A stretch of DNA of 64,000 bases from Pirellulales bacterium (GCA_963733035.1 CAVTBU010000006.1:192001-256000), one strand, 5' to 3'; counted from the stretch's first letter, positions 44,880 through 59,822 are shown. Notes: generated from the sequence alone by a model not told the origin. Program-made: numbers and translations.

Positions 44880-45244
44880 CACACTCAGAAGACAAACTCG
44901 TTGAGGCGCTCAAGCGGCTCGATTTGGAAAGCGGCGATGATGTGGAGACCCTTTCGGGCGTGGTCGCTGACATGGTGCGCAATCAGTCGCGGTATCTTGT
45001 CGCACTGCCGTGGATCTTCACGTTCGTGTTCCTGGGAGTGGCTGTTTATTCGGCCGTGCGGTTTTTCGCCACCCAAGAGCCTAAAGAGTGGGTGCTTTAT
45101 GCCACGTTGTTTCTAACGGCCATGATCGTTGTGGCAATCTTTAAGTTGTGGTTCTATCTGGTGTGGGTCCGCAATTCGATACTCCGCGAGATCAAGCGTA
45201 GCGAACTTCGCCTGCTCGTCGCCCGATCGTCGAAGGCAGAGTAA
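44876..45244 (+). CDS. Membrane putative anti-sigma factor (DUF6768-like)
   Basis: ATGA overlap with the sigma gene; two TM segments; KLW...RNSILREIKR.EL. Confidence 0.7.
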   Translation: MTHSEDKLVEALKRLDLESGDDVETLSGVVADMVRNQSRYLVALPWIFTFVFLGVAVYSAVRFFATQEPKEWVLYATLFLTAMIVVAIFKLWFYLVWVRNSILREIKRSELRLLVARSSKAE

Positions 45245-45407: not shown

Positions 45408-45657
45408 TGTCTCAGGTGGGACTCGAACCCCTAGCGCAAACCCCGGGGAACACCGCCAAATCGCAACTCGCGATGCACAAAACGGCGCAGTTGCCGCACG
45501 GGGGCAGTTGGACGCGGAAAGGGATGCCCAGGTCAGCCCTTTGAGCCAGGCCAAAATCGACGTCGCCCTCGTGGTCGTCATTCAAGCCTGGCCGCACCTG
45601 CCCGAGGCGATTCGGAAGGGGATCCTGGCGCTGGTGCGGGTGGCGGACGGTCCGTGA
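45408..45657 (+). repeat. Left copy of ~240-bp direct repeat beginning with a tRNA T-arm-like fragment
   Basis: GGACTCGAACCCC...GCACAAAACGGCGC...AAATCGACGTCG.CCTCGTGGTCGTCAT.CA.GCCTGGCCGCACCTGCCC.AGGCGAT; matches 61362-61610. Confidence 0.85.
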
Positions 45658-45821
45658 TCTTTCTGCTTCGAATACGTCATTCATGTCGCGGATCCGTTCG
45701 TGCATGATCATCCTTGCGATGTATGTGTGACGCTGGACTGTGACCACATACTAAATAGCGAGTCGCAATTGCGTCGTGAAGCAAACCGACTGCTTTCAGC
45801 AAAGTAACTCACTTTCGGCGA

Positions 45822-46017
45822 TTGAAAGCAGGCCAGGCGTCGTGCTACCTTTCTGTTACTCAACGATGCACTCGTTGGGCCGGTCATCCTGAGTGACCGG
45901 GGTATCCGAAGAGCTCGACAGCACGTCCTCGTCCAAGTAGGCACCTGACAACGAGTATCCAGAGAGCCCGTAATCGGCATGCGCTGCAACAGCGCGCCGA
46001 CTACGGGCTCTTTTTTT
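45822..46017 (+). promoter_or_regulatory. Conserved leader: putative promoter, structured RNA and intrinsic terminator (copy 1)
   Basis: TTGAAA-18-TACCTT with extended TG; core nearly identical to 57892-58088(-); ends GAGCCCG...CGGGCTC-T7. Confidence 0.75.
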
Positions 46018-46048
46018 GTGGGGTTGTCTATCAGGGAGATTCAACGCC

Positions 46049-47413
46049 ATGTATCGCGACCGTCAATACTTGGGAACTAATGAACTAAGGAACAGCACCG
46101 CGCAGAGTCGAGCCCACCTGTTTGCGCAAACGCTGCTCGGCAACCAGAGTCCTGCTCCAGTGGCCGGTTCCATGCAATCACATCACGCAAGCGACGCTCT
46201 CGAGTTTGTGGCGAGCATCTCAGGCCGAGCACTCGACAGGTTGCGCCAAGTTCGAGCCATCTCGGCACAGGCTCAACGAGATCGAGAGTTGCTCGAATGG
46301 CTGGCCTTGATTTCGGACGGGCACGACCGCAAGTTGCGGGAAATTCAGCTCCTGGAAGTGGAACGGCAACTAGTCGAGCAGCGCTCTGAGCACCGCAGCG
46401 ACTTGCTTGACCTGCAAGAGGCGGAATGGGACCCCGCCAAACATCCTCGTCGCGGCTCGGCGCCTAATCCAGGGTGGTTCGCGACAACAGGAGGGACGGG
46501 GACGGGTGCCGGTTCGTCAACCCCTGGTCGCGCAACCGGTGGCGAATCTAGCAGTGGAAGCGAGGCTTCTACCGTTTCTAAACCTTCGGCCACTGCGCCA
46601 AAGAGCACCAAGCTTGATACACCATCAGAGCCGACCAAGCCTTCTCGCGATGGGGTACCGGCGGTACAAGCCGTCTACTCAGGGCGGAGACAGATAGCAG
46701 CGCAACAAGCGGCGTGGCCGTCACCGGTCGGGCATCACTGGGTGCCGATCGGCGTGATTCAGCATCCCGACATCCGTCCATTCTTGTCAGATGAGGCCGC
46801 CCAATACGCAGCCGGAGCATACTCTGGCCCCACCAGTCCACACCACGGAAACAGGACATATGGCGACGTTGCCCATCCCAAGTACAGTGCGGAAGTACGG
46901 AAGGAACTGAGGGCGTTCATTGACGCGCGCGGCATCAAGAAAATGACGGCAAAGGATATGGCAGAGTTTACAGACTTGATTAAGGGCGGACGCGGCGCAA
47001 ACGGAAAGCCAAATAAGGTGATTGCTTCTTTTAACAAGGCCATCAAGGGAATCGTCCCCAAGGGCACGAAGCCTCTCTCATCAATGGACGAGATCATGGC
47101 TGCAGGAGCCAAGCATATGAGGCACTCCCGCTTCAAGCTGTTGGCCGCAGGCGCGGTCATCTCCGGTGTTCTTGGCGAGGTAATCAACCAGCAAGTGAAT
47201 GTCTTGGATGTGGCCGCGAACAGCGGTCATTATCGCCGCGCGCTAAAGGCCCTTGAAGAGGGCGACCTAAGTAAAGCGCATAGCCTACTCATCGGCGATG
47301 GCAATAGCTTGTATCACGAGATACTCGGCCAGGTCGGTGCTCACGCTGCCCTGAATTTCAAGAAGGCTATGGAACGCGTATTCGAGATGGCAAGAAATCA
47401 AGACTATAGGTGA
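46049..47413 (+). CDS. Polymorphic toxin-like protein with HNH/AHH-like C-terminal nuclease
   Basis: GGGAG SD; LFAQxxLG / RDRELLEW / EWDPAKHPR N-terminus; low-complexity linker; GHHWVP...HH...HPKY C-terminus. Confidence 0.65.
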   Translation: MYRDRQYLGTNELRNSTAQSRAHLFAQTLLGNQSPAPVAGSMQSHHASDALEFVASISGRALDRLRQVRAISAQAQRDRELLEWLALISDGHDRKLREIQLLEVERQLVEQRSEHRSDLLDLQEAEWDPAKHPRRGSAPNPGWFATTGGTGTGAGSSTPGRATGGESSSGSEASTVSKPSATAPKSTKLDTPSEPTKPSRDGVPAVQAVYSGRRQIAAQQAAWPSPVGHHWVPIGVIQHPDIRPFLSDEAAQYAAGAYSGPTSPHHGNRTYGDVAHPKYSAEVRKELRAFIDARGIKKMTAKDMAEFTDLIKGGRGANGKPNKVIASFNKAIKGIVPKGTKPLSSMDEIMAAGAKHMRHSRFKLLAAGAVISGVLGEVINQQVNVLDVAANSGHYRRALKALEEGDLSKAHSLLIGDGNSLYHEILGQVGAHAALNFKKAMERVFEMARNQDYR

Positions 47414-47478
47414 AGACTTTGCACCGTTGCCATAGCGTCGCTCGAAGCACAACTCACGGCATAACTCAATCAGGCGCT

Positions 47479-49070
47479 CTAATGACTTTCGTCCAGACTC
47501 AGCAAGACTCGCCCGATATGAGTCGCCAGCAACGAGTGGCCCGAACTTTCATCGCATGAGTGGCCTGCGGTATGCCAGCGGCTGCGTGGCCCGTCCACAA
47601 CGAGCCAACCCGGCTTGCCTAGGCGCAATGCGCGCGCCAGTGCAATCAATCGCTGAGGATATCCCAGCTCCTGAGAAAACTCAGCCACTAGCGTAATGGT
47701 CACCGAATCACAGTCCTGAAACGAAGATGGAGGCATCAAATGATCAAACTCATTGGAATGCTCAGCAATCGACACTTCCGAGATCATTCCAAGATTTCTC
47801 ATCTCCCAATAGCAGTGGACTGCATAGACATCGTCGGGAGGTCGATCACAGAGATCGTTTGAAAAGAGGCACAACGTTACACTCCCCACCATTCCGACTC
47901 CGACATCGTAGCCATGATAAGCTGTCGAGTCGTTCATACGGTACCTGATCAGCCACACCTCTTTCGGCTCGCGTGTGGGCGGCCAAGCCACTGTTCGGTG
48001 ATCGACAATTTTCAGTTCGTCGGGCGCACGGCCGAGCTCGTTCGGATGGGCGAGCCAATCGGCGAAGGCCGCCATGGCTTGGAAGTTCGGCAATTGGCAC
48101 TCGGAAGGAATGTAACCGCCCTGTTCGAGATCTCTGAGGCACTGTTGTGCTCGGGCAGAATACCTCGCATCACGACAACATCGCGTCAGCCACGCGAATC
48201 CAGCTTGGCGACCTAGTTTGGCCGCTGCATGCGCGCAGCCATTTGCACATCAAGGTCCACATGGTCTAAGGCTAAGGCCATAAGCGCATCTCGCCCGGAG
48301 GTACGAAGATACGGCAACGCCACGGCTGCACTTTGTGCATAGCTGACGTGCTCGCTGTCGGTCAACCACTTCTCAAGTTGTTCAATCCCTTTTGGTGTAT
48401 CAAATGGATGTGCACTGCAAACTCCGTCGCGACACGCGCTATTAGAACAATCGAGGAGGGCCACGGCGAGAAAGCCTGTCGGCCGTAAGTTGCTCAATTT
48501 AACGAGCAGGCGTTTGCGTTCCGGATGATCGTTTTCATACCGTGCGAGTATGACGCTCCATAGGCTTGAATCTGGCGCAAAAGCCTTTCGTGCCGCTCGT
48601 ATCACCGCATCGGTACCCTCGCGCGTACAATACATCGCCAACACGTCCAGGGCGAACAATACGTCGTCGGCCGGGTGGTGGGCCGGTGTACGCAAGCCTT
48701 CGTCGACCACTTTCAGTAGAAGGTCGCCCCCCTGCTTCGCAAGGATTGCGAAGGCGGGACACTCGGCGCTCTCAACCAAATCAAACAAGTGAATTAGTGA
48801 ACTCAGTGCAGACCGGTTCACATCCATTGGAGGCAGATCCAAAATCCACTCCAGGACATGGCAAATAGCTTCCGCGTCAATACGCGACTTGATAGGTTGC
48901 TCGCCCAGCTTCCACAGTTCGTCACTGACGCTTGCACCATGCTCCATTCCGCGTCTCAGTGCTAAAATCAGAGGCGTGTGTGTTGAGAAGTCGTCGAATC
49001 TCATCATCGGTCGGTCACCAAATCCAAATCTTCTGCCCAACTTAATGCTAGCCGAATATGTCGGGTCCAT
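47479..49070 (-). CDS. HEAT-repeat-like hypothetical protein, frameshift near 48235
   Basis: The frame of ORF 47479-48093 extends upstream (AHAAAKLGRQAG...) into ORF 48213-49070. Confidence 0.7.
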
Positions 49071-49238
49071 CAGCAGTCAGAGAGCTCAACGCATATCTCG
49101 ACCTGGCTCGAACCGGCAAGATTTTCAGATTTCCCCATGAACCCACGAAACCCTTCCGGCGTCTAAGGTGTCGACAGGGTCGAGGCCGTGTTGGCGTCCG
49201 ACTGCAGTTGTGACAAGCTTTTACGGGTTGTTCCTTCC

Positions 49239-49319
49239 ATGATGTTCTTACGGCCAAGACTGTTCCAAGAACACGTAGCCGGGAGTTATTGCGCAGCACA
49301 AACGATTGCTGCAAGGTAA
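49239..49319 (+). CDS. Putative 26-aa leader peptide of the tRNA array
   Basis: MMFLRPRLFQEHVAGSYCAAQTIAAR*; rich in A/T-ending and AGR codons; overlaps alternative hairpins. Confidence 0.5.
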   Translation: MMFLRPRLFQEHVAGSYCAAQTIAAR

Positions 49320-49375
49320 TTCCCCCGCGCTACCGCTACGCTTGTGACGCTTGGCCTTTAGGTCTGCTGGCTGCC

Positions 49376-49409
49376 AAAGCCCGATGTCACAAGGACATCG
49401 GGCTTTTTT
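49376..49409 (+). terminator. Intrinsic terminator upstream of the first tRNA (attenuator)
   Basis: AAAGCCCGATGTC-ACAAG-GACATCGGGCTTT followed by a T-run. Confidence 0.85.
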
Positions 49410-49455
49410 GTTAGCCTCATGTCGCGCGACAGCGGGAACCAAACAACAAACGAAT

Positions 49456-49527
49456 GGGTCGGTAGCTGAGACGGTTTAGCGGTGGCCTGAAAAGCCGCAG
49501 ACGAGGATTCGAGCGCCTCCCGACCCA
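49456..49527 (+). tRNA. tRNA-Phe(GAA), irregular T-loop
   Basis: Anticodon arm GTGGC-CTGAAAA-GCCGC. Confidence 0.7.
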
Positions 49528-49563
49528 CTGCGCTCTGCGTGCGCGCTGACGGAGAACACTCAC

Positions 49564-49636
49564 GGCTCGTTCGTCTATCGGTTCAGGATACTGCCCTTTC
49601 AAGGCGGAGAGGTGGGTTCGATTCCCACACGAGCTA
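49564..49636 (+). tRNA. tRNA-Glu(TTC)
   Basis: CTGCC-CTTTCAA-GGCGG; GGTTCGATTCC. Confidence 0.9.
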
Positions 49637-49654
49637 CTGAAGCAACAAAATCAT

Positions 49655-49726
49655 CGGGCTGAAGAGGGACGGCGCCTCGCGTGCCTTGGGAGCACGAGAC
49701 AGTCGGTTCGACTCCGACCTGCCCGA
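49655..49726 (+). tRNA. tRNA-Pro(TGG)
   Basis: CGTGC-CTTGGGA-GCACG. Confidence 0.8.
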
Positions 49727-49736
49727 CTTGCGTGAC

Positions 49737-49808
49737 GGTAGTTGAGGGCTGGTTGCCCAAACCCGGCTGATAACCAGGTGGCGCTGAGTTCGATTCTCAG
49801 AACTACCA
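49737..49808 (+). tRNA. tRNA-Ile(GAT)
   Basis: Loop CTGATAA; GGTAGTT/AACTACC acceptor. Confidence 0.75.
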
Positions 49809-49887
49809 CTGAACGAGAGATCACAAGAAGGAGAAACGACGTTGGCAACTCGCATGCGACTCAAACGCATACGCCCACTCCACATTC

Positions 49888-49959
49888 GGGGTCGTGGCGT
49901 AACGGCAGCGCTTCCGCCTTTTAAGCGGGAAGGTAAGGGTTCGACTCCCTTCGGCCCCA
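49888..49959 (+). tRNA. tRNA-Lys(TTT)
   Basis: TCCGC-CTTTTAA-GCGGG. Confidence 0.88.
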
Positions 49960-49987
49960 CTGCGTTGGCTTCGGCCAGCGATCGCGG

Positions 49988-50060
49988 CGGCGCGTAGCTC
50001 AGTGGTGAGAGCAGGTCTCTTATAAGGACCAGGTCGAGGGTTCGATTCCCTCCGCGCCCA
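49988..50060 (+). tRNA. tRNA-Ile(TAT), rare anticodon
   Basis: Canonical TAGCTCAGTGG D-arm; GGTCT-CTTATAA-GGACC. Confidence 0.88.
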
Positions 50061-50092
50061 CTGTGCGCGCAGAAACGAGGAACAACACGAAC

Positions 50093-50165
50093 GGGATCAA
50101 GGTGCTAGCGGCAGCATGCCTGGCTCTTAACCAGGTCGGTGAGGGTTCAAGTCCCTCTGATCCCA
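50093..50165 (+). tRNA. tRNA-Lys(CTT)
   Basis: CCTGG-CTCTTAA-CCAGG. Confidence 0.88.
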
Positions 50166-50168
50166 CTG

Positions 50169-50264
50169 GAAACAGGCGAGAGGCACGAGGCCACAGGCTA
50201 GAGGGCGACCTTGAACCTCTACTGCTGACCTCTGGTCTCTCGCCTCAGGCCTCTGGCCTGTTTC
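50169..50264 (+). repeat. Heptamer-repeat palindromic hairpin (REP-like)
   Basis: GAAACAGGC (nnnAGGC)x3 ... (GCCTnnn)xn GCCTGTTTC. Confidence 0.7.
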
Positions 50265-50294
50265 GATCTTTGACAATTCGACCAGCGATTCGAC

Positions 50295-50361
50295 GCGCCC
50301 ATGATGTAGCGGTAGCCTGCTGCCTTGCCATGGCGTGCGGGTTCAACTCCCGCTGGGCGCT
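50295..50361 (+). tRNA. tRNA-Gly(GCC), shortened (variable region deleted)
   Basis: GCGCCCA/TGGGCGC acceptor, loop TTGCCAT, only ~67 nt. Confidence 0.65.
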
Positions 50362-50368
50362 TCAATTT

Positions 50369-50442
50369 CAGGGTGTGGGATAGCCTGGTAGTCCGCCTGC
50401 GTCGGGAGCAGGAGAGCGTCGGTTCAATTCCGACCACCCTGA
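50369..50442 (+). tRNA. tRNA-Pro(CGG)
   Basis: CCTGC-GTCGGGA-GCAGG. Confidence 0.88.
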
Positions 50443-50480
50443 CTTTTTGAGAACGCTCTGACCGGTACAATGAGCGAATC

Positions 50481-50798
50481 ATGAATTGGCTTACGCCGTG
50501 GACTCCGATTGTCGAAAGCGATCGCGCGGAAATGCTGACTACCGAACTTCGTCGCGAAGTTGGAGTCGGCCACGTGCTGTTCGGCATTCCGGTAAAACCA
50601 ATTGCAATTCGCCAAGATTGCGACGACGTGCTCTTCGAGCTTCTTGATGGCTCGGGCCGATTCGCCGTCACTCACTTGACGTACGCTCAGCATCCCGAGC
50701 CAGATTCGCAATGGCCTGCAACTCGTCTCTGTGACGATTTGACTCAATTCGAGCGGAGCATCATGCACGTCGATCATTCGACCGCGACCGGCTTATAG
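50481..50798 (+). CDS. Small hypothetical protein inserted in the tRNA array
   Basis: 105-aa ORF filling the gap between two tRNA-Pro genes; EL.RE...GH.L...RQDCDDVLF...VTHLTY. Confidence 0.7.
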   Translation: MNWLTPWTPIVESDRAEMLTTELRREVGVGHVLFGIPVKPIAIRQDCDDVLFELLDGSGRFAVTHLTYAQHPEPDSQWPATRLCDDLTQFERSIMHVDHSTATGL

Positions 50799-50815
50799 CG
50801 ATCGACTCCAGCTCG

Positions 50816-50889
50816 GAGGGTGTAGCGAAGCCTGGCATCGCGCAAGCTCGGGGAGCTTGAGATCGCAGGTTCAAATCCTGCCACCCTGA
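50816..50889 (+). tRNA. tRNA-Pro(GGG), C33
   Basis: CAAGC-TCGGGGA-GCTTG. Confidence 0.8.
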
Positions 50890-50908
50890 CTCGAACGTCG
50901 TCGATTGT

Positions 50909-51457
50909 TCAGCGCTTCCAAATCGTTACGTCGCTGCTGATCGCGATCAATAGCGTTCGGCCAGTGTACGAAAAGCCAAACCCGCGAAGCTCACGCTCAA
51001 TGGCTAGTTTCCAGAATCGTGAGGCAGGTGGATAGATGCTCTCGTACTTGCCAAGAAGCAAAAGACTTGTGTCCGGCCAATCGATGGACAAGGCTTCGAC
51101 GCCCCATCCGTCATCGGTCTGAGTCGGGAGGCCACCACCGACAAGTCCACAGACGCGAATCTCCCTTCCATCAAGTGGACCAAATCCGATGGCAGTCATG
51201 GCGTCTTTGCCGAACCACGATTCTTGATCTGATTCGTCACGATCTCGAGCGACTTTTTCGCCGGTGCGGCAATCGATGATTCCACGCCCTTGAGACGACA
51301 GTACCAGTAGCAGTTCAGAGTCGTCCGCAAAACCAATCTCAGTAAGTCCGCCAATTGCGACGGACGCGACGAACGACCATGGCTCTGGCGGAGCGGTGAC
51401 CGCAGCACGGCGAATTTTGTCTCGCACAGGTTCGAGGTGGTCCATAAGGTTTGCCAT
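50909..51457 (-). CDS. Hypothetical protein antisense within the tRNA array
   Basis: 182-aa ORF that fills the inter-tRNA gap exactly. Confidence 0.7.
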   Translation of the reverse strand: MANLMDHLEPVRDKIRRAAVTAPPEPWSFVASVAIGGLTEIGFADDSELLLVLSSQGRGIIDCRTGEKVARDRDESDQESWFGKDAMTAIGFGPLDGREIRVCGLVGGGLPTQTDDGWGVEALSIDWPDTSLLLLGKYESIYPPASRFWKLAIERELRGFGFSYTGRTLLIAISSDVTIWKR

Positions 51458-51500
51458 GGGTTCATAGGATGGCTCGCCAGTATACCGGATTGATCAATAT

Positions 51501-51575
51501 TGCGGTGGGGCCTGTGTTGGTACAGGCAGGCGCCTGTTAAGCGCCCCTTCGCAGGTTCGATTCCTGCCGCCGCAG
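51501..51575 (+). tRNA. tRNA-Asn(GTT)
   Basis: GGCGC-CTGTTAA-GCGCC. Confidence 0.88.
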
Positions 51576-51587
51576 CTTTCTAGGGAC

Positions 51588-51671
51588 GGAAGGGCAAGCC
51601 AATGGGCGATGGCAGCTGTTTCGAAAACAGTCGAGCGATGAGCCTTGAGGGTTCGACTCCCTCTCCTTCCG
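51588..51671 (+). tRNA. tRNA-Ser(CGA)
   Basis: GCTGT-TTCGAAA-ACAGT; long variable arm. Confidence 0.88.
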
Positions 51672-51675
51672 CTTC

Positions 51676-51747
51676 GTGCTCTTGGCCGATCGGCAGAGGC
51701 GTCAGCCTTCCAAGCTGAACAGGCGGGTTCGATTCCCGCAGAGCACT
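51676..51747 (+). tRNA. tRNA-Gly(TCC)
   Basis: TCAGC-CTTCCAA-GCTGA. Confidence 0.88.
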
Positions 51748-51760
51748 TTCGATCAATCAT

Positions 51761-51831
51761 TCGGGGATCGGCTAATGGTCGGCCGCCTGGCTTTGAACCA
51801 GGCTATGGTAGTTCGAATCTACCTCCCCGAG
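51761..51831 (+). tRNA. tRNA-Gln(TTG)
   Basis: CCTGG-CTTTGAA-CCAGG. Confidence 0.88.
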
Positions 51832-51840
51832 CTTGGAAGA

Positions 51841-51887
51841 CTACCGCCCTGCGCTCGATTGCCGCCCGGCAATCGTGCTCGGTTGCT
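51841..51887 (+). repeat. 47-nt hairpin mini-element (copy 1) inside a tRNA remnant
   Basis: CTACCGCCCTGCGCTCG-ATTGCC-GCCC-GGCAAT-CGTGCTCGGTTGCT, followed by a T-arm/acceptor 3' half. Confidence 0.8.
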
Positions 51888-51925
51888 GGTTTGATTCCTT
51901 CTCCCCGAACTCGGTGACAAAACAT

Positions 51926-52000
51926 TCCGGGGTAGCTGCTGCTGGTAGTGGCGCCTGGCTCTGAACCAGGAGGTCGTTGGTTCGATTCCAACTCCCGGAG
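51926..52000 (+). tRNA. tRNA-Gln(CTG)
   Basis: CCTGG-CTCTGAA-CCAGG. Confidence 0.88.
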
Positions 52001-52020
52001 CTGTTTCGAACGACACGATC

Positions 52021-52106
52021 GGAAGTCATCCGGCCGGATGAGGAGCCTGTCTTGAAAACAGGTGGCGGCCTCGCGCCGCTTGTGGGTTCGAGTCCCACGG
52101 CTTCCG
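52021..52106 (+). tRNA. tRNA-Ser(TGA)
   Basis: CCTGT-CTTGAAA-ACAGG; long variable arm. Confidence 0.88.
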
Positions 52107-52134
52107 CTCAACAGGTCGATTCGTTCAGCAACAC

Positions 52135-52205
52135 AGTCCCGTGGTCCAACGGCAAGACTCCTGCGTCACATCCAGGAAACGATGGTTCAACTCCATCCGG
52201 GACTA
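52135..52205 (+). tRNA. tRNA-Val(CAC)
   Basis: Loop GTCACAT; one stem mismatch. Confidence 0.75.
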
Positions 52206-52211
52206 CTCGAT

Positions 52212-52285
52212 GTCCAGGTACGCCAATTGGCAGAGCGGCACGGCTTAAACCCGCGCGGATGCCGGTTCGACTCCGGCCTTGGGCA
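52212..52285 (+). tRNA. tRNA-Leu(TAA), short variable loop
   Basis: CACGG-CTTAAAC-CCGCG. Confidence 0.8.
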
Positions 52286-52295
52286 CTGTCAACGC

Positions 52296-52368
52296 GGCTC
52301 GGTCGGCAACGGCAGACCACCTTGGCTTAGAACCAAGGATGCTGTGGGTTCGAATCCCACCTGAGCTA
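52296..52368 (+). tRNA. tRNA-Leu(TAG), short variable loop
   Basis: CTTGG-CTTAGAA-CCAAG. Confidence 0.85.
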
Positions 52369-52382
52369 TTTAGTAGAGACTC

Positions 52383-52457
52383 GTCCTCGTGGAGTAGTCT
52401 GGAGTGCTCGCCTGCCTGTCACGCAGGAGATCACGGGTTCAAATCCCGTCGGGGACG
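52383..52457 (+). tRNA. tRNA-Asp(GTC)
   Basis: CCTGC-CTGTCAC-GCAGG. Confidence 0.92.
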
Positions 52458-52539
52458 CCTTTTGATTGTTGTACGCGAAATCGTCTGTGGCGCGGAGTGT
52501 TCCGCAACGCCTCGACGAACTGCAACGCAACGTAAATCT

Positions 52540-52613
52540 GGCACGGTACGCCAATCGGCTGAGCGGCGAAGCTCAAACCTTCGTGTCTGCGGGTTCGACT
52601 CCCGCCTGTGCCA
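52540..52613 (+). tRNA. tRNA-Leu(CAA), short variable loop
   Basis: CGAAG-CTCAAAC-CTTCG. Confidence 0.85.
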
Positions 52614-52619
52614 CTGTTC

Positions 52620-52706
52620 GGGTTGTGCTCCTCGTGGCGGCCTGTAAAGCCGTTGTCACAAAAGAAGCGAGGTGGGCGACGAATGGTTCGATTCCTTCAC
52701 AACCCA
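52620..52706 (+). tRNA. tRNA-Tyr(GTA)-like, lacking a D-arm, long variable region
   Basis: GGGTTGT/ACAACCC acceptor; GCGGC-CTGTAAA-GCCGT. Confidence 0.65.
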
Positions 52707-52711
52707 ATTGA

Positions 52712-52784
52712 GGCCCGCTCGTCTATCGGTTGAGGACGCCAGCCTCTCAAGCTGGAAGGACGGGTTCGATTCCCGTGCGGGTCA
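52712..52784 (+). tRNA. tRNA-Glu(CTC)
   Basis: CCAGC-CTCTCAA-GCTGG. Confidence 0.9.
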
Positions 52785-52790
52785 CTGTAT

Positions 52791-52873
52791 GGCCAAGTGG
52801 TGTAACTGGTAAACACGCGACGCTCAGAACGTCGTGCCCTTGCGGCGTGGGAGTTCGAGTCTCCCCTTGGTCA
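52791..52873 (+). tRNA. tRNA-Leu(CAG), long variable arm
   Basis: CGACG-CTCAGAA-CGTCG. Confidence 0.9.
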
Positions 52874-52890
52874 CTGAAATATTGAATTGA

Positions 52891-52959
52891 CGCAGGTGAG
52901 CCAGTGCTCAGCCGAGTTTCATAAGCTCAGCCCGTCGGGTGCGACACCCGAACCTGCAA
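52891..52959 (+). tRNA. tRNA-Met(CAT), initiator-like C1:A72, degenerate
   Basis: Loop TTCATAA, short D-arm, T-loop TGCGACA. Confidence 0.6.
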
Positions 52960-52964
52960 CTTAC

Positions 52965-53040
52965 GGCCGGGTACGCAAACTGGCAAAGCGACGAGGTCGA
53001 GAGCCTCGTGATTTTGTGAGTTCGACTCTCACTCCGGTCA
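52965..53040 (+). tRNA. tRNA-Leu(GAG), C33, short variable loop
   Basis: CGAGG-TCGAGAG-CCTCG. Confidence 0.8.
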
Positions 53041-53069
53041 CTTGAATGAGATTGCGGCCAAAACTGATC

Positions 53070-53507
53070 CTACAGTGCGAGCACGCGGCACACCTCTCGA
53101 ATCCAGATCTCACCGATCCATTCCAGGTCGGCATACGGAGAGATGCGTGAAGCGGTCCAGCCGCTTTCGTCGAGTACTCGCATCATGCCGGGTGCCGCCA
53201 AGGCGTTCGTTGTGTGGATGATCACTGGGCATGTCGGCGGTTTCGTCGCGAGAAAGTCGGCCACATCGCGTCCGGTGCCGGGGTCACGCATGACACCGCC
53301 GATCAATCGGTTGGGTCCGAGATCGTGATCGAGGCAGATGAGAATCGGTTCGCCGCAGTGAACCTTCAGCCAGACGATCATATCTGGTGCATTGTCGAAC
53401 ACAATTGATTCATGGCCTGGGCAGCGACTTGCGAGGCACGGCAACATTGCGGCGATCCGTTCCGGCTCGTCGTCAAGAATTGCGACTACTTTTGATTCGC
53501 TTGCCAT
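53070..53507 (-). CDS. Cyclic-phosphate-processing receiver-like domain protein
   Basis: ILDD...ICLDHDLG...GTGRDVA...VIIHTTN pattern. Confidence 0.75.
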   Translation of the reverse strand: MASESKVVAILDDEPERIAAMLPCLASRCPGHESIVFDNAPDMIVWLKVHCGEPILICLDHDLGPNRLIGGVMRDPGTGRDVADFLATKPPTCPVIIHTTNALAAPGMMRVLDESGWTASRISPYADLEWIGEIWIREVCRVLAL

Positions 53508-53533
53508 GTCAACAAGTCTAACAAATCACATTC

Positions 53534-53606
53534 GATCCCGTGGTCCAACGGCTACGACGCCTGGATGACACCCAGGAGGCAGATGGTTCAACTCCATCCG
53601 GGATCA
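53534..53606 (+). tRNA. tRNA-Val(GAC)
   Basis: CCTGG-ATGACAC-CCAGG. Confidence 0.85.
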
Positions 53607-53616
53607 TTTGCGAATC

Positions 53617-53688
53617 GGTCTGTAGGTGTGTTCGGCGGCACACCTCCTCGGTAAGGAGGAAGGCCGGGTTCGACTCCCGGACGGACCT
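53617..53688 (+). tRNA. tRNA-Thr(GGT), C33
   Basis: CCTCC-TCGGTAA-GGAGG. Confidence 0.82.
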
Positions 53689-53757
53689 TCAACCGAGCAC
53701 GCGACATAGGCGTGCCGCGAGCGCAGGGCGAAAGGAATCGAGATGGATAGAAGTGAG

Positions 53758-53795
53758 GGGCTGCTGGTCCAACGGCAAGACGCTTGGATTGAAGT
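53758..53795 (+). pseudogene. 5' half of a tRNA-Ala-like gene, 3' half replaced by a hairpin
   Basis: GGGCTGCTGGTCCAACGGCAAGACGCTTGG resembles the start of the next tRNA-Ala; no T-arm follows. Confidence 0.6.
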
Positions 53796-53837
53796 CAGCG
53801 TCGATGGCAACGGCGGATCGACGCTCGTCAAATACAT

Positions 53838-53908
53838 GGGCTGCTCGTCCAACGGGAAGACGCCTGGCTTGCAACCAGGAAATCGGGGTTCGACTCCCCG
53901 GCGGTCCA
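53838..53908 (+). tRNA. tRNA-Ala(TGC)
   Basis: G3:U70; CCTGG-CTTGCAA-CCAGG. Confidence 0.9.
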
Positions 53909-53919
53909 CTGAATAAAAC

Positions 53920-53990
53920 GGGCTCATGGTCCAAAGGGAAGACATCAGGCTGGCAGTCTGAAGATCCGGGTTCAATTCCCGGTGAGTCCA
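53920..53990 (+). tRNA. tRNA-Ala(GGC)
   Basis: G3:U70; TCAGG-CTGGCAG-TCTGA. Confidence 0.88.
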
Positions 53991-54008
53991 CTGATACGGG
54001 AAACCTTT

Positions 54009-54311
54009 TTACATCGGAATACCGGCATCAATCGCAGCTTGTCGATTGTGGCCGGGTTCGAGAAGTGTCGTTCCTTGATAGACCTCGACGTTCGCGTCCA
54101 TGAGATCAGAAAGAGGCAGCTCAACATAGACCTGGGTATTACGGTCGGTCTCGACAACGTTGAACCACGGTTGTGCAACGAAACTGCGCACCTGGATTTC
54201 CAGTGACTCGCCGGGCAACAGCGTGAAGTCGTGAGGCCACGGCTCGACCCAAATGACGCGCAATTGCGCTTCGTCGTTGGTCACGCCGATCTTTGCGAAG
54301 AACTCACTCAT
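54009..54311 (-). CDS. Small hypothetical (immunity-like) protein
   Basis: 100-aa ORF in an inter-tRNA gap; VIWVEPW..DFTLLPGE. Confidence 0.6.
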   Translation of the reverse strand: MSEFFAKIGVTNDEAQLRVIWVEPWPHDFTLLPGESLEIQVRSFVAQPWFNVVETDRNTQVYVELPLSDLMDANVEVYQGTTLLEPGHNRQAAIDAGIPM

Positions 54312-54443
54312 TACCCTAGCGTATTGCGGAAGCGTACGACAAACAAGTGATTCGGAAGGTAGATGCTATGGCAGCGGCGAGGGACTGCGTTAGGCTCCGA
54401 GTCACGAGGGATTGTTTTATCCGTTGTTTTGAGGAGCTCAATC

Positions 54444-55622
54444 ATGGCCACTCGACCGCAAGACTGCAGCACAACGAAGCCAGTACTGTTCCTGGGTCTC
54501 GAATTAGGGCAGCGAACCTGGAAGTTGGGGTTCACCGTGGGTTTGGGTCAGAAGCCGCGGCGACGTGAGATCGCTGCCGGTTGCATTCAGGCACTGAAAC
54601 GAGAGATCAATGAGAGTAAGCAACGTTTTGGTCTGCCTGCGGATGTGGAGGTGATTAGCTGTTACGAGGCAGGCCGTGATGGGTTTTGGCTGCATCGTTG
54701 GCTGGTGTCTGAGAACGTCACAAACTTGGTGGTTGACTCGTCTAGCATTCAAGTGCCGCGGCGGCAGCGACGGGCCAAGACCGATCGTCTGGATTTGGAA
54801 CAATTGTTGACCATGTTGGTGCGCTGGCATCAGGGCGAGTCGAAAGTCTGGAGCGTGGTGACGGTGCCGAGTGAAGCGGAAGAGGACGTTCGGCATTTGC
54901 ATCGCGAGTTGGAAACGCTGCGGGCGGAACAGACCAGCCACATCAATCGAATCAAGGGGCTGTTGATCGGTTGCGGCGTGGTGATTGATGTGAACCGCTG
55001 GCTACCGAAACGGCTCAAAGCAATACGGCTTTGGAATGGCTCGCCGTTGACCAGCGATTTGCGGCAACGGGTATTGCGGGAGTTCGAGCGGATGCAGGTG
55101 GTCAATCGACAGGTTCGCGAGCTGGAAAAGGAGCGTGCCGCCCGGATTCGCAGCAACGAAACTGACAAGAGCGTCGCCCAGGTGCGGACGTTGTTGGGCG
55201 TGAAGGGCATCGGCGTCAACAGCGCGTGGATGTACGTGCAGGAGGTGTTTGGCTGGCGAAAGATCAAGAATCGTCGTCAATTGGGTGCGCTCGTGGGGCT
55301 GACCGGCAGTCCGTATAGCAGCGGCAACTTGGAGCGCGATCAGGGAATTACAAAGGCTGGAAACCGCCGGATGCGAACAATGGCTGTCGAAATCGCCTGG
55401 GGATGGTTGGCATTCCAACCCGGCAGCGATCTGAGCCGTTGGTATCACGATCGATTCGCGGCCGGAAACAAGCGTCTTCGTCGCATTGGAATTGTGGCGC
55501 TGGCAAGAAAGCTGTTGGTGGAGTTGTGGAAATACCTGGAGACCGGCGTGCCGCCTTGCAACGCGGAGCTGACCGAGTGGGAGGACAAGATTCACTACAC
55601 CCCTTCCCTTACGCCGGCGTAG
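54444..55622 (+). CDS. IS110 family transposase/recombinase
   Basis: LGLELG, CYEAG, KTDRLD, GIG, SSG and ITKAGN motifs; GAGGAG SD. Confidence 0.92.
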   Translation: MATRPQDCSTTKPVLFLGLELGQRTWKLGFTVGLGQKPRRREIAAGCIQALKREINESKQRFGLPADVEVISCYEAGRDGFWLHRWLVSENVTNLVVDSSSIQVPRRQRRAKTDRLDLEQLLTMLVRWHQGESKVWSVVTVPSEAEEDVRHLHRELETLRAEQTSHINRIKGLLIGCGVVIDVNRWLPKRLKAIRLWNGSPLTSDLRQRVLREFERMQVVNRQVRELEKERAARIRSNETDKSVAQVRTLLGVKGIGVNSAWMYVQEVFGWRKIKNRRQLGALVGLTGSPYSSGNLERDQGITKAGNRRMRTMAVEIAWGWLAFQPGSDLSRWYHDRFAAGNKRLRRIGIVALARKLLVELWKYLETGVPPCNAELTEWEDKIHYTPSLTPA

Positions 55623-55629
55623 CGATTGG

Positions 55630-55860
55630 ATCGGTGCGAGTATGGAGCGTCTGAACGACTGACGTCGAGACTGGAAAGCGACCGAGTATCCGGCGGGTAC
55701 GAGTTAGGCTCACCGAAAGGTAGATGGGATCGCTTTCATTATGGCTTCCCGAGAGCGTCCAGGACGCATAGGGCATAGGGTGATCGGCGATGATGCCGGC
55801 ACGGATAGAAGCTAGTCGTTGGCCTCGGCCACAACGATCAGCGGAAGCCGCCAGTCATGA
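55630..55860 (+). ncRNA. Candidate bridge/seek RNA of the IS110 element
   Basis: Contains AAGGTAG (target left flank + core) and ATAGAAG (element right end + core); boundaries approximate. Confidence 0.6.
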
Positions 55861-56218
55861 CGTTGAACCGACAGAAGAAGTGTTTTGAGGAATGGCAGGA
55901 CAAATGAATGTGCATCCCAGCACGGCTCCAGCCGCGGCGTGCGGCCAGAGCCGTCACGGAATCATTCACCCGCCCTGACCTGGCTATCCCTTGTTGGGTT
56001 GCTCTTCAGCAGAGCTCAACTCCGTTTCACCAGGCAGGCGAAAGTATATCACGACTCAACGTTGGATGAGGAGCTTGACAGGTGCGCATCCATAGAAGCC
56101 GGATACGGTTGGCCGGGCCGCTCTGCTAAGGCGGTTCCCGCTCGTCGGGATGAGGGTTCGAATCGGGCACCGCGGCAAAGCCGTGGTCTACCTTCCGCTG
56201 GTGAAAAGGCTCCTCCAA

Positions 56219-56581
56219 TCACTTCGCCTGTTCCACGTCGATCGCGGCCCGCAGCTCCTCAACATTCGCGAATTGTTGAAGTGGAAGATCGAACGAGTAG
56301 TCGAGATCAATGATTCGAAGGGGGATGCCGAGATGCCTTTGAACGATCAGCGCGGCACTTAGGGCGGCGTCTGTCATCCCCGATATCGAGATCGCGTCGC
56401 GTTTCCGGCTGAGGTCGACCATCGTGAAGTCGTCGCCCTCAGAATAGTCCGCTTCAATTGGGATTCCGATGGACGTATTATATCGAATCTCACCGAATCC
56501 CCTGACCGACTTGAAAATGTCTTGCAACGCCTCGACGGTAAATAGCCGTTTGTCGTCGCTGAACAGCAGAAGACTTTGCAT
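56219..56581 (-). CDS. Putative cognate immunity protein
   Basis: 120-aa acidic ORF starting 16 nt after the toxin stop. Confidence 0.65.
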   Translation of the reverse strand: MQSLLLFSDDKRLFTVEALQDIFKSVRGFGEIRYNTSIGIPIEADYSEGDDFTMVDLSRKRDAISISGMTDAALSAALIVQRHLGIPLRIIDLDYSFDLPLQQFANVEELRAAIDVEQAK

Positions 56582-56596
56582 AGCAATTACGTACTC

Positions 56597-57867
56597 CTAG
56601 GGCTCGAGTCGCACCTTGCCGGGCACGGATAGTTCCTTGAGCAGGGCTTCAAAAGCTGACTTCGCCTCGGGCGAGTTGGTGATGATTTCGATTGATTTAA
56701 AAGGCGTTTCGCCACTCTTGATAATTGTGCGAACTCTCGTCAAATCGTCACGCACTTTGTCCAGAATCACGGCCCGGATGTCCTCTCGGATAGATGAGCC
56801 GGGCACATAAGGACTCTTGCCGGCCTTCGCTACGTGCTTCGCTTCAAGAATTATCGTATCCCGGTATCCATCGATTGCAAAAGACTGGCCGCCGCCTGAT
56901 ATCGTGTAGTTGTAGGGGCCGGTCTGCTTGATTTCATATTGACTCGCTGCCGATTTCGTGGGTGTAGGCTTGCGAGGAAGCTTCGCGACGAAGTCATCAA
57001 GAGTGCCTCCCACTTTTCCAGGAACTTTGCGAAGCGCCCTGCCGAGCACAGCCTTCCCGAGTCGCAGGATTGCCGGTGCGGCCACGACGGCGGATGCAAT
57101 TTCAAACTCAATGCCGGTTGACTGCAAACCACTCGGTGTGCCGCCCCTGGCTACGGCATGCCCGACTTCCTCGATACCCTTGCCACCGACGATCGTCTCT
57201 GCCGGGGTGAACGCCGAATGCTGTTTCGCTGGGCGTGATAGCTCTTAATGCGTTTCGGCAATTCCTTGATTTGGCGACGGGTGTGATCCAATGCATTCTT
57301 TGTCTGCCACCAAGCGTGTGCCAGGTCCAGCATGTGTGAGTCGGAACCGTCGGACTCGTCGCTTCCGCCGCTACCGGGCCCCTTGCTGCGGGGTGAGCGA
57401 CTCTTGCCGGTGTTGATTCCGCCCCCACCGCCCCCCTTATTGATCCACTGCCCGCCGATCGGCGTTCCCTTGGGCGCCCGGGGATGATCGGCCTCGTTCC
57501 ATTCGACAACAAGTGAGTCTGATTCAGTGAATCGCTCGATCGCATGCCACGTCCTGCTGTCCCGTGCCTCGATCTGTTGAATCGCACGCAGTTTGTCTTC
57601 CGCCTCGGCCGAGATCTGAGCTGCCCATTCCAGAAGCTCACGATCGCGACGAGCGTTGGCTTCGGCGGATTGCAGCTCGCGCAGCTCCTTTGCCTGTCGA
57701 TACGAGAATCGTGCTAGCCGCCCCAACTCCTCGCGTTGAGCTTTCGCCTGTGCCTCGGGAGGCATCATTCGTGGAATCGGCCTACCGAGAATCGCTTGTG
57801 CAAATAGCCAACCTTCGCTGGGCTGCGAAACTCCGGCGACATCCCGTGTCTTTTTGTAACGGTCCAT
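56597..57867 (-). CDS. Polymorphic toxin with restriction-endonuclease-fold (Tox-REase-2-like) C-terminus, frameshift near 57240
   Basis: N-terminus LFAQAILG / RDRELLEW / EWNEADHPR; C-terminus YE...IDG...LEAK...SPY...EIITN (PD-D/ExK); GAGGAG SD. Confidence 0.75.
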
Positions 57868-57891
57868 GACGCTCCTCTTCATGGGTGCGAG

Positions 57892-58088
57892 AAAAAGAGC
57901 CCGCACCCGGTGCGCGCTTCGCAAGCGCGCACCGATTACGGGCTCTTTGGATACTCGTTGTCAGGGGCCTACTGGCACGAGGACGTGCAGTCGAGCTCTT
58001 CGGATACCCCGGTCACTCATGGTGACCTTGCCCAGCGATCAGCTCGCCGATTGATTCGGAACCTAGCACAAAGGGCGGCCTAGTTTCT
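57892..58088 (-). promoter_or_regulatory. Conserved leader: putative promoter, structured RNA and intrinsic terminator (copy 2)
   Basis: TAGAAA-18-TAGGTT with extended TG; shares TGAGTGACCGGGGTATCCGAAGAGCTCGAC...CCTGACAACGAGTATCC...GAGCCCGTAATCGG with copy 1. Confidence 0.75.
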
Positions 58089-58179
58089 AGTCGAAGATTT
58101 AATGGAGTGATTGGTCTGAGCAAATACGTCGCGCGAACCGTGCGGCGTGGATCTGTTTCCTTTTCTAATGTCTCAGCTC

Positions 58180-58269
58180 GCCTCGATGGTGAAACGGACG
58201 ATCACTCCTTGCTTCTAACAAGGCCCGGTATTTCTGGGAGACGCGGGGGTTCGAATCCTGGTCGGGGCA
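58180..58269 (+). tRNA. tRNA-Arg(TCT), degenerate (insertion in variable region, weak T-stem)
   Basis: GCCTCGA/TCGGGGC acceptor; CCTTG-CTTCTAA-CAAGG. Confidence 0.6.
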
Positions 58270-58279
58270 TTTTGAAGAA

Positions 58280-58312
58280 GAGTGGTTGGTGGTCAGTGGC
58301 TAGTGGTCAGTG
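58280..58312 (+). repeat. Short heptamer tandem repeat (AGTGGTY)n
   Basis: AGTGGTT GGTGGTC AGTGGCT AGTGGTC AGTG. Confidence 0.65.
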
Positions 58313-58368
58313 AAGCAAGGGGCGGCGAACACAAAGCGTGCTCGTCTGTCCTACCTGTGGCCTGTGGT

Positions 58369-58415
58369 CTACCGCCCTGCGCTCGGCAGATGCCCATCTG
58401 CCGTGCTCGGTTGCT
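58369..58415 (+). repeat. 47-nt hairpin mini-element (copy 2) inside a tRNA remnant
   Basis: CTACCGCCCTGCGCTCG-GCAGAT-GCCC-ATCTGC-CGTGCTCGGTTGCT followed by GGTTCAATTCCT. Confidence 0.8.
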
Positions 58416-58616
58416 GGTTCAATTCCTCGGCGAGGCACTGAGAAGGCGGCGAGTTGAATGATCATGTTGCGAGCGATCCTAACAGCGTTGAGACGATTCC
58501 TGTTTGGCCAGCCTGTGGCCAGCAGGGTGACCGCGAAGAAACCGTCGGCAGAAGCCGTCGCGTGTGCGGTCGTTCATTCGACGACGTCGGCGGATCGCAA
58601 CGAAGGGAGGCCTACC

Positions 58617-59108
58617 ATGAACGCAGCCTATGACAAACTATGCGAACACCTGACCAACCAGAACGTCGGCTTTTGGTCGCGCAGCGAGGACTTGTCGATC
58701 TGCACCGACTTTCGGGGCGAGGTCGGTACGTACCGGATCTTCGCTCGGATTGATGCTGATGACAGCTTGTTCCAGGTCTTCGGTCATTCGCCGGTTCGCG
58801 TTCCGCCAGGCTCGCGGCCGGCGATCGCCGAGGCCGTGGCGCGGATCAACTGCGGTCTGAAGGTCGGCAAGTTCGAGATGGATTGTGACGAGGGCGAGCT
58901 GCGGTTCCAGGCGGCCCAGATCCTGCCCGACGACGATCTCGACGAGCAGACGATTCGGCGACTGATTGGTACGACCATGTCGATGTTGAACATTTACCTT
59001 CCGGCCATCTTGTCGGTCATCTACGGCAACGAACTGCCGAAGGATGCCGTCAGACACGCAGAGCCCGGGCGGTATGTGTCCGACGAAAACGAGCGCGGTG
59101 AGGCCTGA
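58617..59108 (+). CDS. YbjN-like (CesT-fold) protein
   Basis: GGGAGG SD; AEAVARIN.GLKVGKFEMD..EGELRF. Confidence 0.75.
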   Translation: MNAAYDKLCEHLTNQNVGFWSRSEDLSICTDFRGEVGTYRIFARIDADDSLFQVFGHSPVRVPPGSRPAIAEAVARINCGLKVGKFEMDCDEGELRFQAAQILPDDDLDEQTIRRLIGTTMSMLNIYLPAILSVIYGNELPKDAVRHAEPGRYVSDENERGEA

Positions 59109-59121
59109 TCACCGCGCATTT

Positions 59122-59194
59122 GTCCTCGGAGTGTGCCGGATTCGCACGCGACCCTGCGAAGGTCGAGGACCAGGTTCAACTCCTGGCGAGGACA
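59122..59194 (+). tRNA. tRNA-Arg(GCG), rare anticodon
   Basis: CGACC-CTGCGAA-GGTCG; GTCCTCG/CGAGGAC acceptor. Confidence 0.85.
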
Positions 59195-59241
59195 TTTTGG
59201 AATGTCGCGGGATTGTGTACCGTAGTAGCGGGAGACACTCA

Positions 59242-59706: not shown

Positions 59707-59750
59707 CCCAACATGGTCCGGCTCGTGCAGCAGCATCAATTCTCAAATCT

Positions 59751-59822
59751 GACGCTGAAGCCAGACGGCGTGGCAACTGCCTGCAAAGCAGTTCACAGCG
59801 GGTTCGACTCCCGCCGGCGTCT
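59751..59822 (+). tRNA. tRNA-Cys(GCA)
   Basis: ACTGC-CTGCAAA-GCAGT; U73. Confidence 0.88.

Follow-up and report, generated by a model that had tools for sequence, protein, structure and literature searches.

A 64,000-nucleotide (nt) stretch of DNA from a Pirellulales bacterium (GCA_963733035.1, CAVTBU010000006.1:192001-256000; hereafter, the window) carries two oppositely oriented genes, toxin gene A and toxin gene B, that share an N-terminal domain and are each preceded by a copy of the same structured leader RNA. Judged from their sequences, both genes are members of a family of polymorphic toxins that had not been described before; it comes from uncultured soil Pirellulales, and its toxicity is predicted. 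We consider it fairly probable that this new family is coupled to a leader with a conditional terminator, which would make the toxins part of a domesticated phage-like element's regulon. With this family comes an N-terminal module, as yet uncharacterised, from a phylum about whose interbacterial weapons very little is known, and the leader is a conserved, covarying leader-terminator RNA that is absent from Rfam and found in more than half of the order's sampled genomes. It ties scattered toxin genes to a capsid cluster kept in about 70% of the order, and this link points to a regulon of a domesticated phage element and bacteriocin-like toxins. In addition, the junction motif W(D/N)ExxHPR..GGxF of phage polyvalent proteins, so far unexplained, can be approached through this family.

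The toxin family

The motifs LFAQxxLG, RELLEW, KLRxIQ and EWxxxxHPR and a Gly-rich linker, which a preliminary description of this DNA had reported as common to both genes, are present in each. They define an all-helical N-terminal domain (N-domain) of ~145 amino acids (aa) that ends in EWxxxxHPR..G..W and is followed by the Gly-rich linker. In the alignment it runs from PPSEAWLFAQAILG through two REELExLAxxSxxHxxxLR repeats to a junction motif with the consensus EW(D/N)xxxHPRxxxGxxxGGxW, and AlphaFold models it as four long helices with a moderate predicted local distance difference test score (pLDDT 66.5) and a disordered HPR region. The domain has no family in Pfam or PHROGs and no sequence match in the PDB at E<=1, and a Foldseek search against the PDB gave no match (best E 7), in keeping with the earlier statement that no recognised secretion domain stands at the N-terminus.

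A profile of the N-domain, searched against 1.84 billion cluster representatives, retrieved 259 of them at E<=1e-3 and 146 at <=1e-10. The match lies at or near the N-terminus throughout, except in five giant proteins of 1.5-2.5 thousand aa (P0107, P0144 and P0152-P0154). These match the junction motif alone, in 6-8 stretches each (counted as the profile's matched stretches) placed between domains that include Phage_Mu_F, LPD1, Acb1 and ART; the HPR motif is thus shared with phage-associated proteins, as had been stated, namely giant MuF/LPD polyvalent proteins. Apart from these, WDxxKHPR..G..W occurs without the remaining N-domain in alphaproteobacterial proteins (loci L110, L111 and L113, from records of Xanthobacteraceae or Alphaproteobacteria metagenome-assembled genomes (MAGs)). 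The literature records returned by a search held nothing relevant on the HPR motif or on planctomycete polymorphic toxins.

The C-termini of the family differ widely. Among 70 members of at least 240 aa, 12 have a C-terminal Pfam match, to WHH (six, one of them also to colicin-DNase), DddA-like deaminase (three), PT-HINT, DUF4951 and GNAT plus SAM-lyase (one each), and the other 58 have none; REase-2 C-termini are found in gene B, in a further copy on contig C5 of the same genome and in P0004. The profile search and C-terminal tabulation that the preliminary description had suggested therefore yield variable rather than invariant C-termini, and its assignment to the polymorphic-toxin architecture stands: the N-domain is always N-terminal, the toxin domains differ among the 70 scanned relatives, and immunity genes are present. 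The N-domain occurs in 14 of the 151 genomes sampled from the order, in three families. Every planctomycete locus found by protein alone comes from a Planctomycetia or Pirellulales MAG, and all family members found are from uncultured MAGs.

Gene B had been taken as a single gene at 57867-56597 on the minus strand. That interval is 1271 nt long, which is no multiple of 3, and it holds a broken copy in two frames (Table 1). In P0008, an intact relative, residues 1-213 are matched by frame 0 (60% identity) and residues 263-321 by the second frame (81% identity); therefore, ~49 codons have been deleted and the frame has changed. The C-terminal frame is open from 57244, and its earliest start codon is a TTG at 57127. 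The Tox-REase-2 assignment (PF15646) holds, with E 1.4e-6 and 28.9 bits against a cut-off of 27.6 over profile positions 4-129 of 129. The motifs DG and EAK are both present (FAIDGYRDTIILEAKHV, read from the sequence); the portion of PMC3482391 cited here gives DG and [DE]xK as the Tox-REase-2 motifs. The small open reading frame (ORF) at 56219-56581 proves immunity-like, as had been suggested, in that its homologues directly follow REase-2 toxins in four loci besides gene B (L008, L100, L118 and L109, the last with four tandem copies).

Gene A ends in a different toxin domain, which carries a GHHWVP motif and whose C-terminal part is modelled as a helical bundle. It has 13 close relatives, most of which also have the WDxxKHPR junction motif. 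Across 16 relatives, the GHH is nearly invariant, the G and the first H being invariant and the second H present in at least 90%. Gene A has no Pfam match; the Pfam AHH family reaches E 0.27 in one of the 16 relatives and not in gene A. Fold searches with the toxin domain gave a best Foldseek E of about 1 and a best VIA-align Z of 7.7 and recovered no HNH fold, their matches being confined to the C-terminal helical bundle, so that residues 12-130 lay effectively outside the fold test. The label 'HNH/AHH-like' had the GHHWVP motif as its sole basis and drew no support from the Pfam and fold searches. No co-directional ORF lies downstream of gene A. Gene-A-type toxins at two other loci (L094 and L091) are directly followed by a conserved ORF of 308-325 aa, a candidate immunity gene.

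The leader RNA

The two leaders form inverted arms of 116 nt (45882-45997 and 57912-58027) that are 87% complementary, as against 35% identity between the N-terminal proteins of genes A and B. The leader is thus far more conserved than the coding sequence, as had been noted from the first. The promoter-like layout reported upstream is likewise the same in both copies, with TTGAAA or TAGAAA, an 18-nt spacer containing GGCCA or GGCCG, and TAnnnT; it recurs in other genomes at leaders of both the toxin type and the general type, whereas a generic sigma-70 scan called no promoter at the leader. An inverted half-site, (G/C)TGG(C/T)(C/T), referred to below as GTGGCC, lies ~11-17 nt upstream of TTGAAA and mirrors the spacer GGCCA(C). 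It is present in 9 of 23 loci (for example, L034, L025, L017 and L022) and absent from TAGAAA-type promoters, including that of copy B. A regulator that binds DNA as a dimer may use this half-site as its operator.

The leader is ~165 nt long, and its terminator stands 15-35 nt before the ribosome-binding site (RBS). In an alignment of 28 copies, the order is P1, P2, GGGUAUCC-GAAGA-GCUCG, P3 (variable, either a loop or a hairpin), CGAGUAUCC, the long terminator and a T-run. The core consists of two 16-nt GGUAUC-N-GAGC units; a small hairpin follows the first, and the terminator follows the second. Within the terminator, the outer stem (AGAGCCCG/CGGGCUCU) shows conservation and the inner one covariation. 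All four helices of the leader covary, the last of them being the intrinsic terminator: 92.2% of cells are paired over the 28 leaders, compared with 34-45% in slid controls, and there are 21 double-change pairs, compared with 9.6 ± 2.0 in shuffles, none of 500 of which reached 21. Leaders A and B differ by compensatory changes in P1 and in the inner terminator stem, and their fold z-scores against shuffled sequence are -4.6 and -4.9, respectively. At gathering score, Rfam 15 recognised only tRNAs in the whole window; within 45600-46200, searched at E<=10, the best matches were three microRNA models with E values of 3.8-7.3, which we take to be due to chance. ORFs antisense to the leader (45856-46050 on the minus strand and 57910-58083 on the plus strand) were rejected as coding by eye, on the grounds that their amino-acid changes are non-conservative and that the frame is lost in the C5 copy.

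A BLAST search found the leader in 19 of 33 genomes of the taxonomic family, with three toxin-type copies in the present genome. Leader and toxin gene were also found through each other: an N-domain gene directly follows the leader in 24 of 29 leader loci, and the leader lies just upstream in 20 of the 29 planctomycete loci that were found via the protein alone. Among sequencing runs, none of RNA was listed as containing this sequence, and the DNA runs that contain it do so in small shares.

An extracytoplasmic function (ECF) sigma factor gene and a gene for a DUF6768 membrane protein (44313-45244) lie directly upstream of leader A. The pair was considered as a regulator and set aside; as it is not conserved beside other toxin loci, its position is probably coincidental.

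Table 1. Toxin genes, immunity-like gene, promoter-like elements and leader RNAs in the window
Feature	Position	Strand	Remarks
Promoter-like element A	45822-45851	+	TTGAAA 45822-45827, GGCCA 45831-45835, TACCTT 45846-45851; 18-nt spacer; read from the sequence
Leader RNA A	45852-46017	+	P1, P2, core, P3, terminator; covariance model R1, 125.7 bits
Leader A, P1 hairpin	~45859-45879	+	
Leader A, P2 hairpin	45882-45898	+	
Leader A, core	45900-45960	+	GGGUAUCC 45900-45907, GAGCUCG, variable P3 hairpin, CGAGUAUCC to 45960
Leader A, intrinsic terminator and T-run	45961-46017	+	
RBS of gene A	46034-46038	+	GGGAG
Toxin gene A	46049-47413	+	454 aa; sole uninterrupted N-domain gene copy in this genome
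Gene A, N-domain	46049-46489	+	residues 1-~147; Gly/Ser linker next
Immunity-like gene of the REase-2 toxin	56219-56581	-	120 aa; no Pfam family
Gene B, C-terminal piece	56597-57244	-	other frame; remainder of pre-toxin module and Tox-REase-2 (IDG...EAK)
Gene B, N-terminal piece	57151-57867	-	238 aa; N-domain, Gly linker, start of pre-toxin module; stop after frame change
Leader RNA B	57891-58058	-	P1, P2, core, P3, terminator; R1, 143.3 bits
Promoter-like element B	58060-58089	-	TAGAAA 58089-58084, GGCCG 58080-58076, TAGGTT 58065-58060

A cassette shared with a phage-like cluster

The leader had been regarded as the toxins' own. It is rather a variant, with two extra 5' hairpins, of a cassette widespread in the order that also heads a phage-like capsid cluster and other genes. 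The leader model R1 gives weaker matches in other families, and one extra match in this genome, which have in common the layout TTGAAA-N2-GGCCA-N10-TAnnnT, core and terminator, with no P1 or P2. The cassette core reads GGUAUCC-N2-3-GAGCC-hairpin-GUAUC-N2-AGAGCCCG, after which the terminator follows. The genes behind these weaker matches are non-toxin genes: YiiX/phrog_1128-like, prohead-protease-like (phrog_29592, weakly phrog_207), and others for ~145-aa helical proteins and for acidic or Pro-rich proteins. The P1/P2 hairpins of the toxin type were observed nowhere but ahead of N-domain genes or remnants of such genes.

A regular-expression search of the whole 6.6-Mb genome found exactly five core-plus-terminator sites, three of which are the toxin leaders. 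The fourth (C6:451386-451462, within the R1 match C6:451335-451463) has a promoter and heads the phage-like cluster, which extends on the plus strand over C6:451335-~475000 (L076 and L077), about 195 kb downstream of the window. The fifth (C6:460041-460119) is promoter-less and lies inside the cluster, before the protease-like and capsid genes. The genes of the cluster run in the order phrog_1128-like, trypsin-like peptidase, ParB-like, GNAT, TerS, TerL, portal, protease-like, head-decoration and capsid, followed by genes of unknown function, and no integrase Pfam match was found in 40 kb.

Both the core and the cluster are widespread in the order. A second model, R2, built from the cores alone, matches in 84 of 151 genomes, where the core is usually accompanied by the same promoter, and these cores covary as well (92.8% of cells paired; 13 double-change pairs compared with 7.6 ± 1.5 in shuffles). 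The capsid gene occurs in 106 of the 151 genomes, representing 73 of 95 genera, and most of these genomes have one copy; the matches are full-length, at 34-66% identity. A hand cross-tabulation of capsid genes with the best 150 of 243 R2 matches placed an R2 core upstream of the capsid gene, on the same contig and strand, in about 41 genomes, at a distance of 1.4-2.8 kb and/or 10-18 kb. Two IMG/VR contigs also show a promoter-core-terminator head followed by YiiX-like and trypsin-like genes. In one genome (G017), the syntenic site has lost the cluster, which may be a domesticated element resembling a gene transfer agent (GTA). The literature records retrieved on planctomycete gene transfer agents and on this cluster contained nothing relevant.

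Because the same leader heads both the toxins and this order-wide cluster, the two probably obey one switch. In the mechanism that we propose, each conserved promoter would give rise to a structured leader ending in a strong intrinsic terminator ahead of the RBS. Transcription would by default stop at this terminator and leave the toxin silent; a single trans-acting signal would then relieve termination at every core site, so that the toxins and the phage-like cluster would come on together. The signal would most likely be an RNA-binding antiterminator that recognises the GGUAUC units beside each terminator. A protein bound to the two units could act in this way because the terminator stem has its base directly beside the second unit. 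What would be expressed is a toxin made up of the N-domain, a disordered junction, a Gly-rich linker, an optional pre-toxin module and a swappable toxin domain, with a cognate immunity gene. Of the antitermination control put forward in the preliminary description, the terminator in the leader remains the best reading, and the leader has the layout of an attenuator (a promoter, then conserved RNA structure, then an intrinsic terminator ahead of the RBS), whereas the relief of termination is what we infer. In the internal copies, which have no promoter, the core always lies the same short way ahead of a terminator of its own. We therefore favour antitermination acting locally, at the RNA level, and place a processive mechanism of the lambda type and a riboswitch below it.

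In the processive alternative, a Q- or N-like factor or a put-like RNA would modify RNA polymerase at the leader, the polymerase would then pass the leader and later terminators, and the short terminated leader would resemble the lambda 6S transcript. The promoter with its conserved spacer GGCCA, the short structured leader, the strong terminator and the phage late-type genes all fit such a scheme, as does the GTGGCC half-site found upstream in 9 of the 23 loci. A polymerase already modified at the leader, however, would have no need of the second, promoter-less core and terminator that lies within the cluster in this genome and at L066 and L067 (and, judged by position, in many others), and no Q or N homologue was seen, although no search aimed at them was made. 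We therefore regard processive antitermination as unlikely.

Somewhat further down the scale, we would place a riboswitch, in which the core (together with P1 and P2 in the toxin type) would be an aptamer for a small molecule, for example a stress or signalling nucleotide, and the terminator its expression platform. The leader matches no Rfam family; conserved unpaired GGUAUCC, GAAGAG and UAUCCAGAG flank covarying helices just upstream of the terminator, and the two repeated units recall tandem-module riboswitches. The core is nevertheless very small and nearly a direct repeat, it has no pocket-like junction and no evident pairing that would switch the terminator, and the downstream genes (toxins, phage-like genes, and genes for acidic or Pro-rich proteins) have no common metabolic theme. 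A stand-alone small RNA, either a type III-style RNA antitoxin or an RNA that binds the conserved N-domain, appears very improbable: a promoter, a structured RNA, a terminator and a toxin gene, in this order, make up the type III layout, and the restriction of P1/P2 to N-domain genes or their remnants would suit it, but the same core precedes non-toxin genes and sits promoter-less inside an operon, the leader has two 16-nt units and no tandem array, and the toxins (REase-2, WHH, DddA-like and others) include no ToxN-like RNases and come with protein immunity genes.

Several observations weigh against the proposal that toxins and cluster form one regulon governed by local antitermination. No candidate antiterminator protein or ligand was identified, and no alternative antiterminator helix is evident; the sole alternative pairing found by eye, between the first GAAGAGCUCG and the 3' arm of the terminator, poses no obvious block to termination. 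The cluster (capsid, TerL or protease-like gene) is found in 11 of the 14 toxin-positive genomes, compared with 70% of the sample for the capsid gene alone. G017 retains five toxin matches without in-frame stops and seven leader matches after losing the block from ParB to a glycosyltransferase, and none of the cluster's proteins in the present genome contains the HPR motif.

The state of the local genes also belongs on this side. The genome holds four N-domain genes, of which the third (C5:1451819-1453345, leader plus toxin, with the gene at C5:1452002) encodes REase-2 followed by an immunity homologue and has a frameshift, and the fourth, on contig C4, is leaderless, contains a TAG in frame and lies ahead of a SUKH immunity gene. 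With gene B, where codons are deleted and the frame changes, three of the four are thus interrupted. A tblastn search of this genome with the 308-325-aa ORF of L094 and L091 gave nothing significant (best E 0.39). The local toxin copies may therefore be decaying, given the three interruptions and the lack at gene A of its relatives' immunity ORF. Genes lying in two frames include an amidase gene (42433-43883), the protease-like gene of the cluster (C6:460136-461058) and the C5 toxin copy (L008:1495-2968). The assembly probably carries single-base indel errors. Since ordinary genes of this assembly are also split, single-base frameshifts are possibly assembly errors, and lone frameshifts are therefore no proof of pseudogenes; the ~49-codon deletion in gene B, by contrast, is no assembly error.

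The preliminary description had envisaged delivery by phage particles. Nine of the 14 toxin-positive genomes have a capsid match, and two fragmented assemblies (G123 and G136) have TerL and the protease-like gene. The remaining three (G017, G001 and G027), which are 96-99% complete, contain intact toxins and leaders and have no capsid or protease-like homologue and a distant TerL or none. What is left at the syntenic site of G017 comprises the leader, the genes resembling YiiX and trypsin, a distal gene (u180) of unknown function and an M20 peptidase. As these three genomes bear toxins without the cluster, capsid delivery is speculative. If the N-domain and HPR junction served as a capsid-targeting or processing signal and the toxins were packaged in GTA-like heads and delivered by them, a route already proposed for MuF toxins and polyvalent proteins, one could understand why the junction motif, as EW(D/N)ExxHPR..G..GGxF/W, is repeated between the domains of giant proteins alongside Phage_Mu_F, LPD1, Acb1 and ART, why toxins and packaging genes have a common regulatory core, and why the toxins have neither a signal peptide (by eye) nor a known secretion domain. 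In addition to the toxins without capsid and the cluster deletion in G017, the toxins' lack of a MuF domain, the lack of the motif in any cluster protein and the position of the toxin genes, which are unlinked to the cluster (gene A is about 213 kb away), tell against it, and we hold capsid cargo to be doubtful. We lean towards toxins that would be released with the phage-like element, or by lysis linked to it, much as S-type pyocins accompany R/F pyocins, rather than obligatorily packaged; a pyocin-like arrangement of soluble, co-regulated toxins, perhaps released alongside the element, would fit at least as well as capsid loading.

Genomic neighbourhood and known systems

The toxin genes, immunity-like ORFs and a transposase gene are interleaved with a tRNA array that extends from 49456 to 59822 and on to C6:268483. 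The window contains 30 tRNA genes, 27 of them within 49456-53991, and 14 more lie just downstream of it, out of a genome total of 96; every anticodon of this supernumerary array is also found elsewhere in the genome. The transposase (54363-55622; Transposase_20, DEDD_Tnp_IS110) is of the IS110 family and lies between the tRNA array and gene B, where there is a strong local GC skew of 0.16-0.23. A stand-alone protein with a cREC_REC domain (cyclic-phosphate processing receiver; 53070-53507, minus strand) is embedded in the array. A YbjN-like gene and its neighbour (58458-59706) have a 92%-identical paralogue at C6:266977-267776, 16 kb downstream in the continuation of the array, which indicates a segmental duplication of the array region.

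Polymorphic toxins, as presented in the portion of Zhang et al. (2012, PMC3482391) cited here, resemble the family in their conserved N-terminal module and variable nuclease or deaminase C-termini, in the PT-HINT pre-toxin domain (here in one member), and in their downstream immunity genes, including SUKH and tandem immunity copies. In contrast, none of the trafficking domains described in Pfam, PHROGs or the PDB matches the N-domain, and the systems described in that portion, which lists Tox-REase-2 for Actinobacteria only, include no dedicated leader with a terminator. MuF toxins and polyvalent proteins (Jamet et al. 2017, PMC5576092; Iyer et al. 2017, PMC5512222) have the junction motif W(D/N)ExxHPR..G..GGxF/W in common with the family, and both are linked to a phage head or packaging context; the portions of these two papers cited here neither mention nor name the motif. 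Unlike MuF toxins, the genes described here are scattered and lie outside a packaging module, and Phage_Mu_F is absent from gene A, gene B and the 70 relatives.

In phage lambda, the PR'-tR' region provides a short, constitutively terminated leader between a promoter and the phage late genes. Lambda Q, N/nut, HK022 put and the local antiterminators of the HutP, LicT and ANTAR type are all similar to the present leader in having conserved RNA elements beside a terminator. The differences from lambda, HutP, LicT and ANTAR are that the core is repeated here at an internal terminator, that no antiterminator helix is evident and that no homologous factor is known.

S-type pyocins and colicins are soluble modular nuclease toxins with immunity genes and without a signal peptide, and in the PrtN/P-box regulon of pyocins, the box upstream of the toxin genes is also found at phage-derived particle clusters located elsewhere in the genome. 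The helical N-terminal part and Gly-rich disordered stretch of the family recall receptor and translocation domains. There is no sequence similarity, however; the box here includes an RNA core and a terminator, beyond a DNA site, and the particle cluster, having capsid, portal and terminase genes, is no tailocin, and no lysis gene or regulator was identified in this case. One may still picture, tentatively and as an unlikely extreme, the operons of a domesticated, vertically inherited system of phage-like particles and a set of scattered nuclease and deaminase toxins, all gated by a single RNA-level antitermination switch made of tandem GGUAUC units beside each terminator. The toxins, which have the HPR junction motif in common with head-packaged polyvalent proteins, would be packed into the particles or leave the cell with them, and so serve as a weapon against other bacteria. 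Such a system, if real, would be a capsid-based counterpart of the pyocin regulon.

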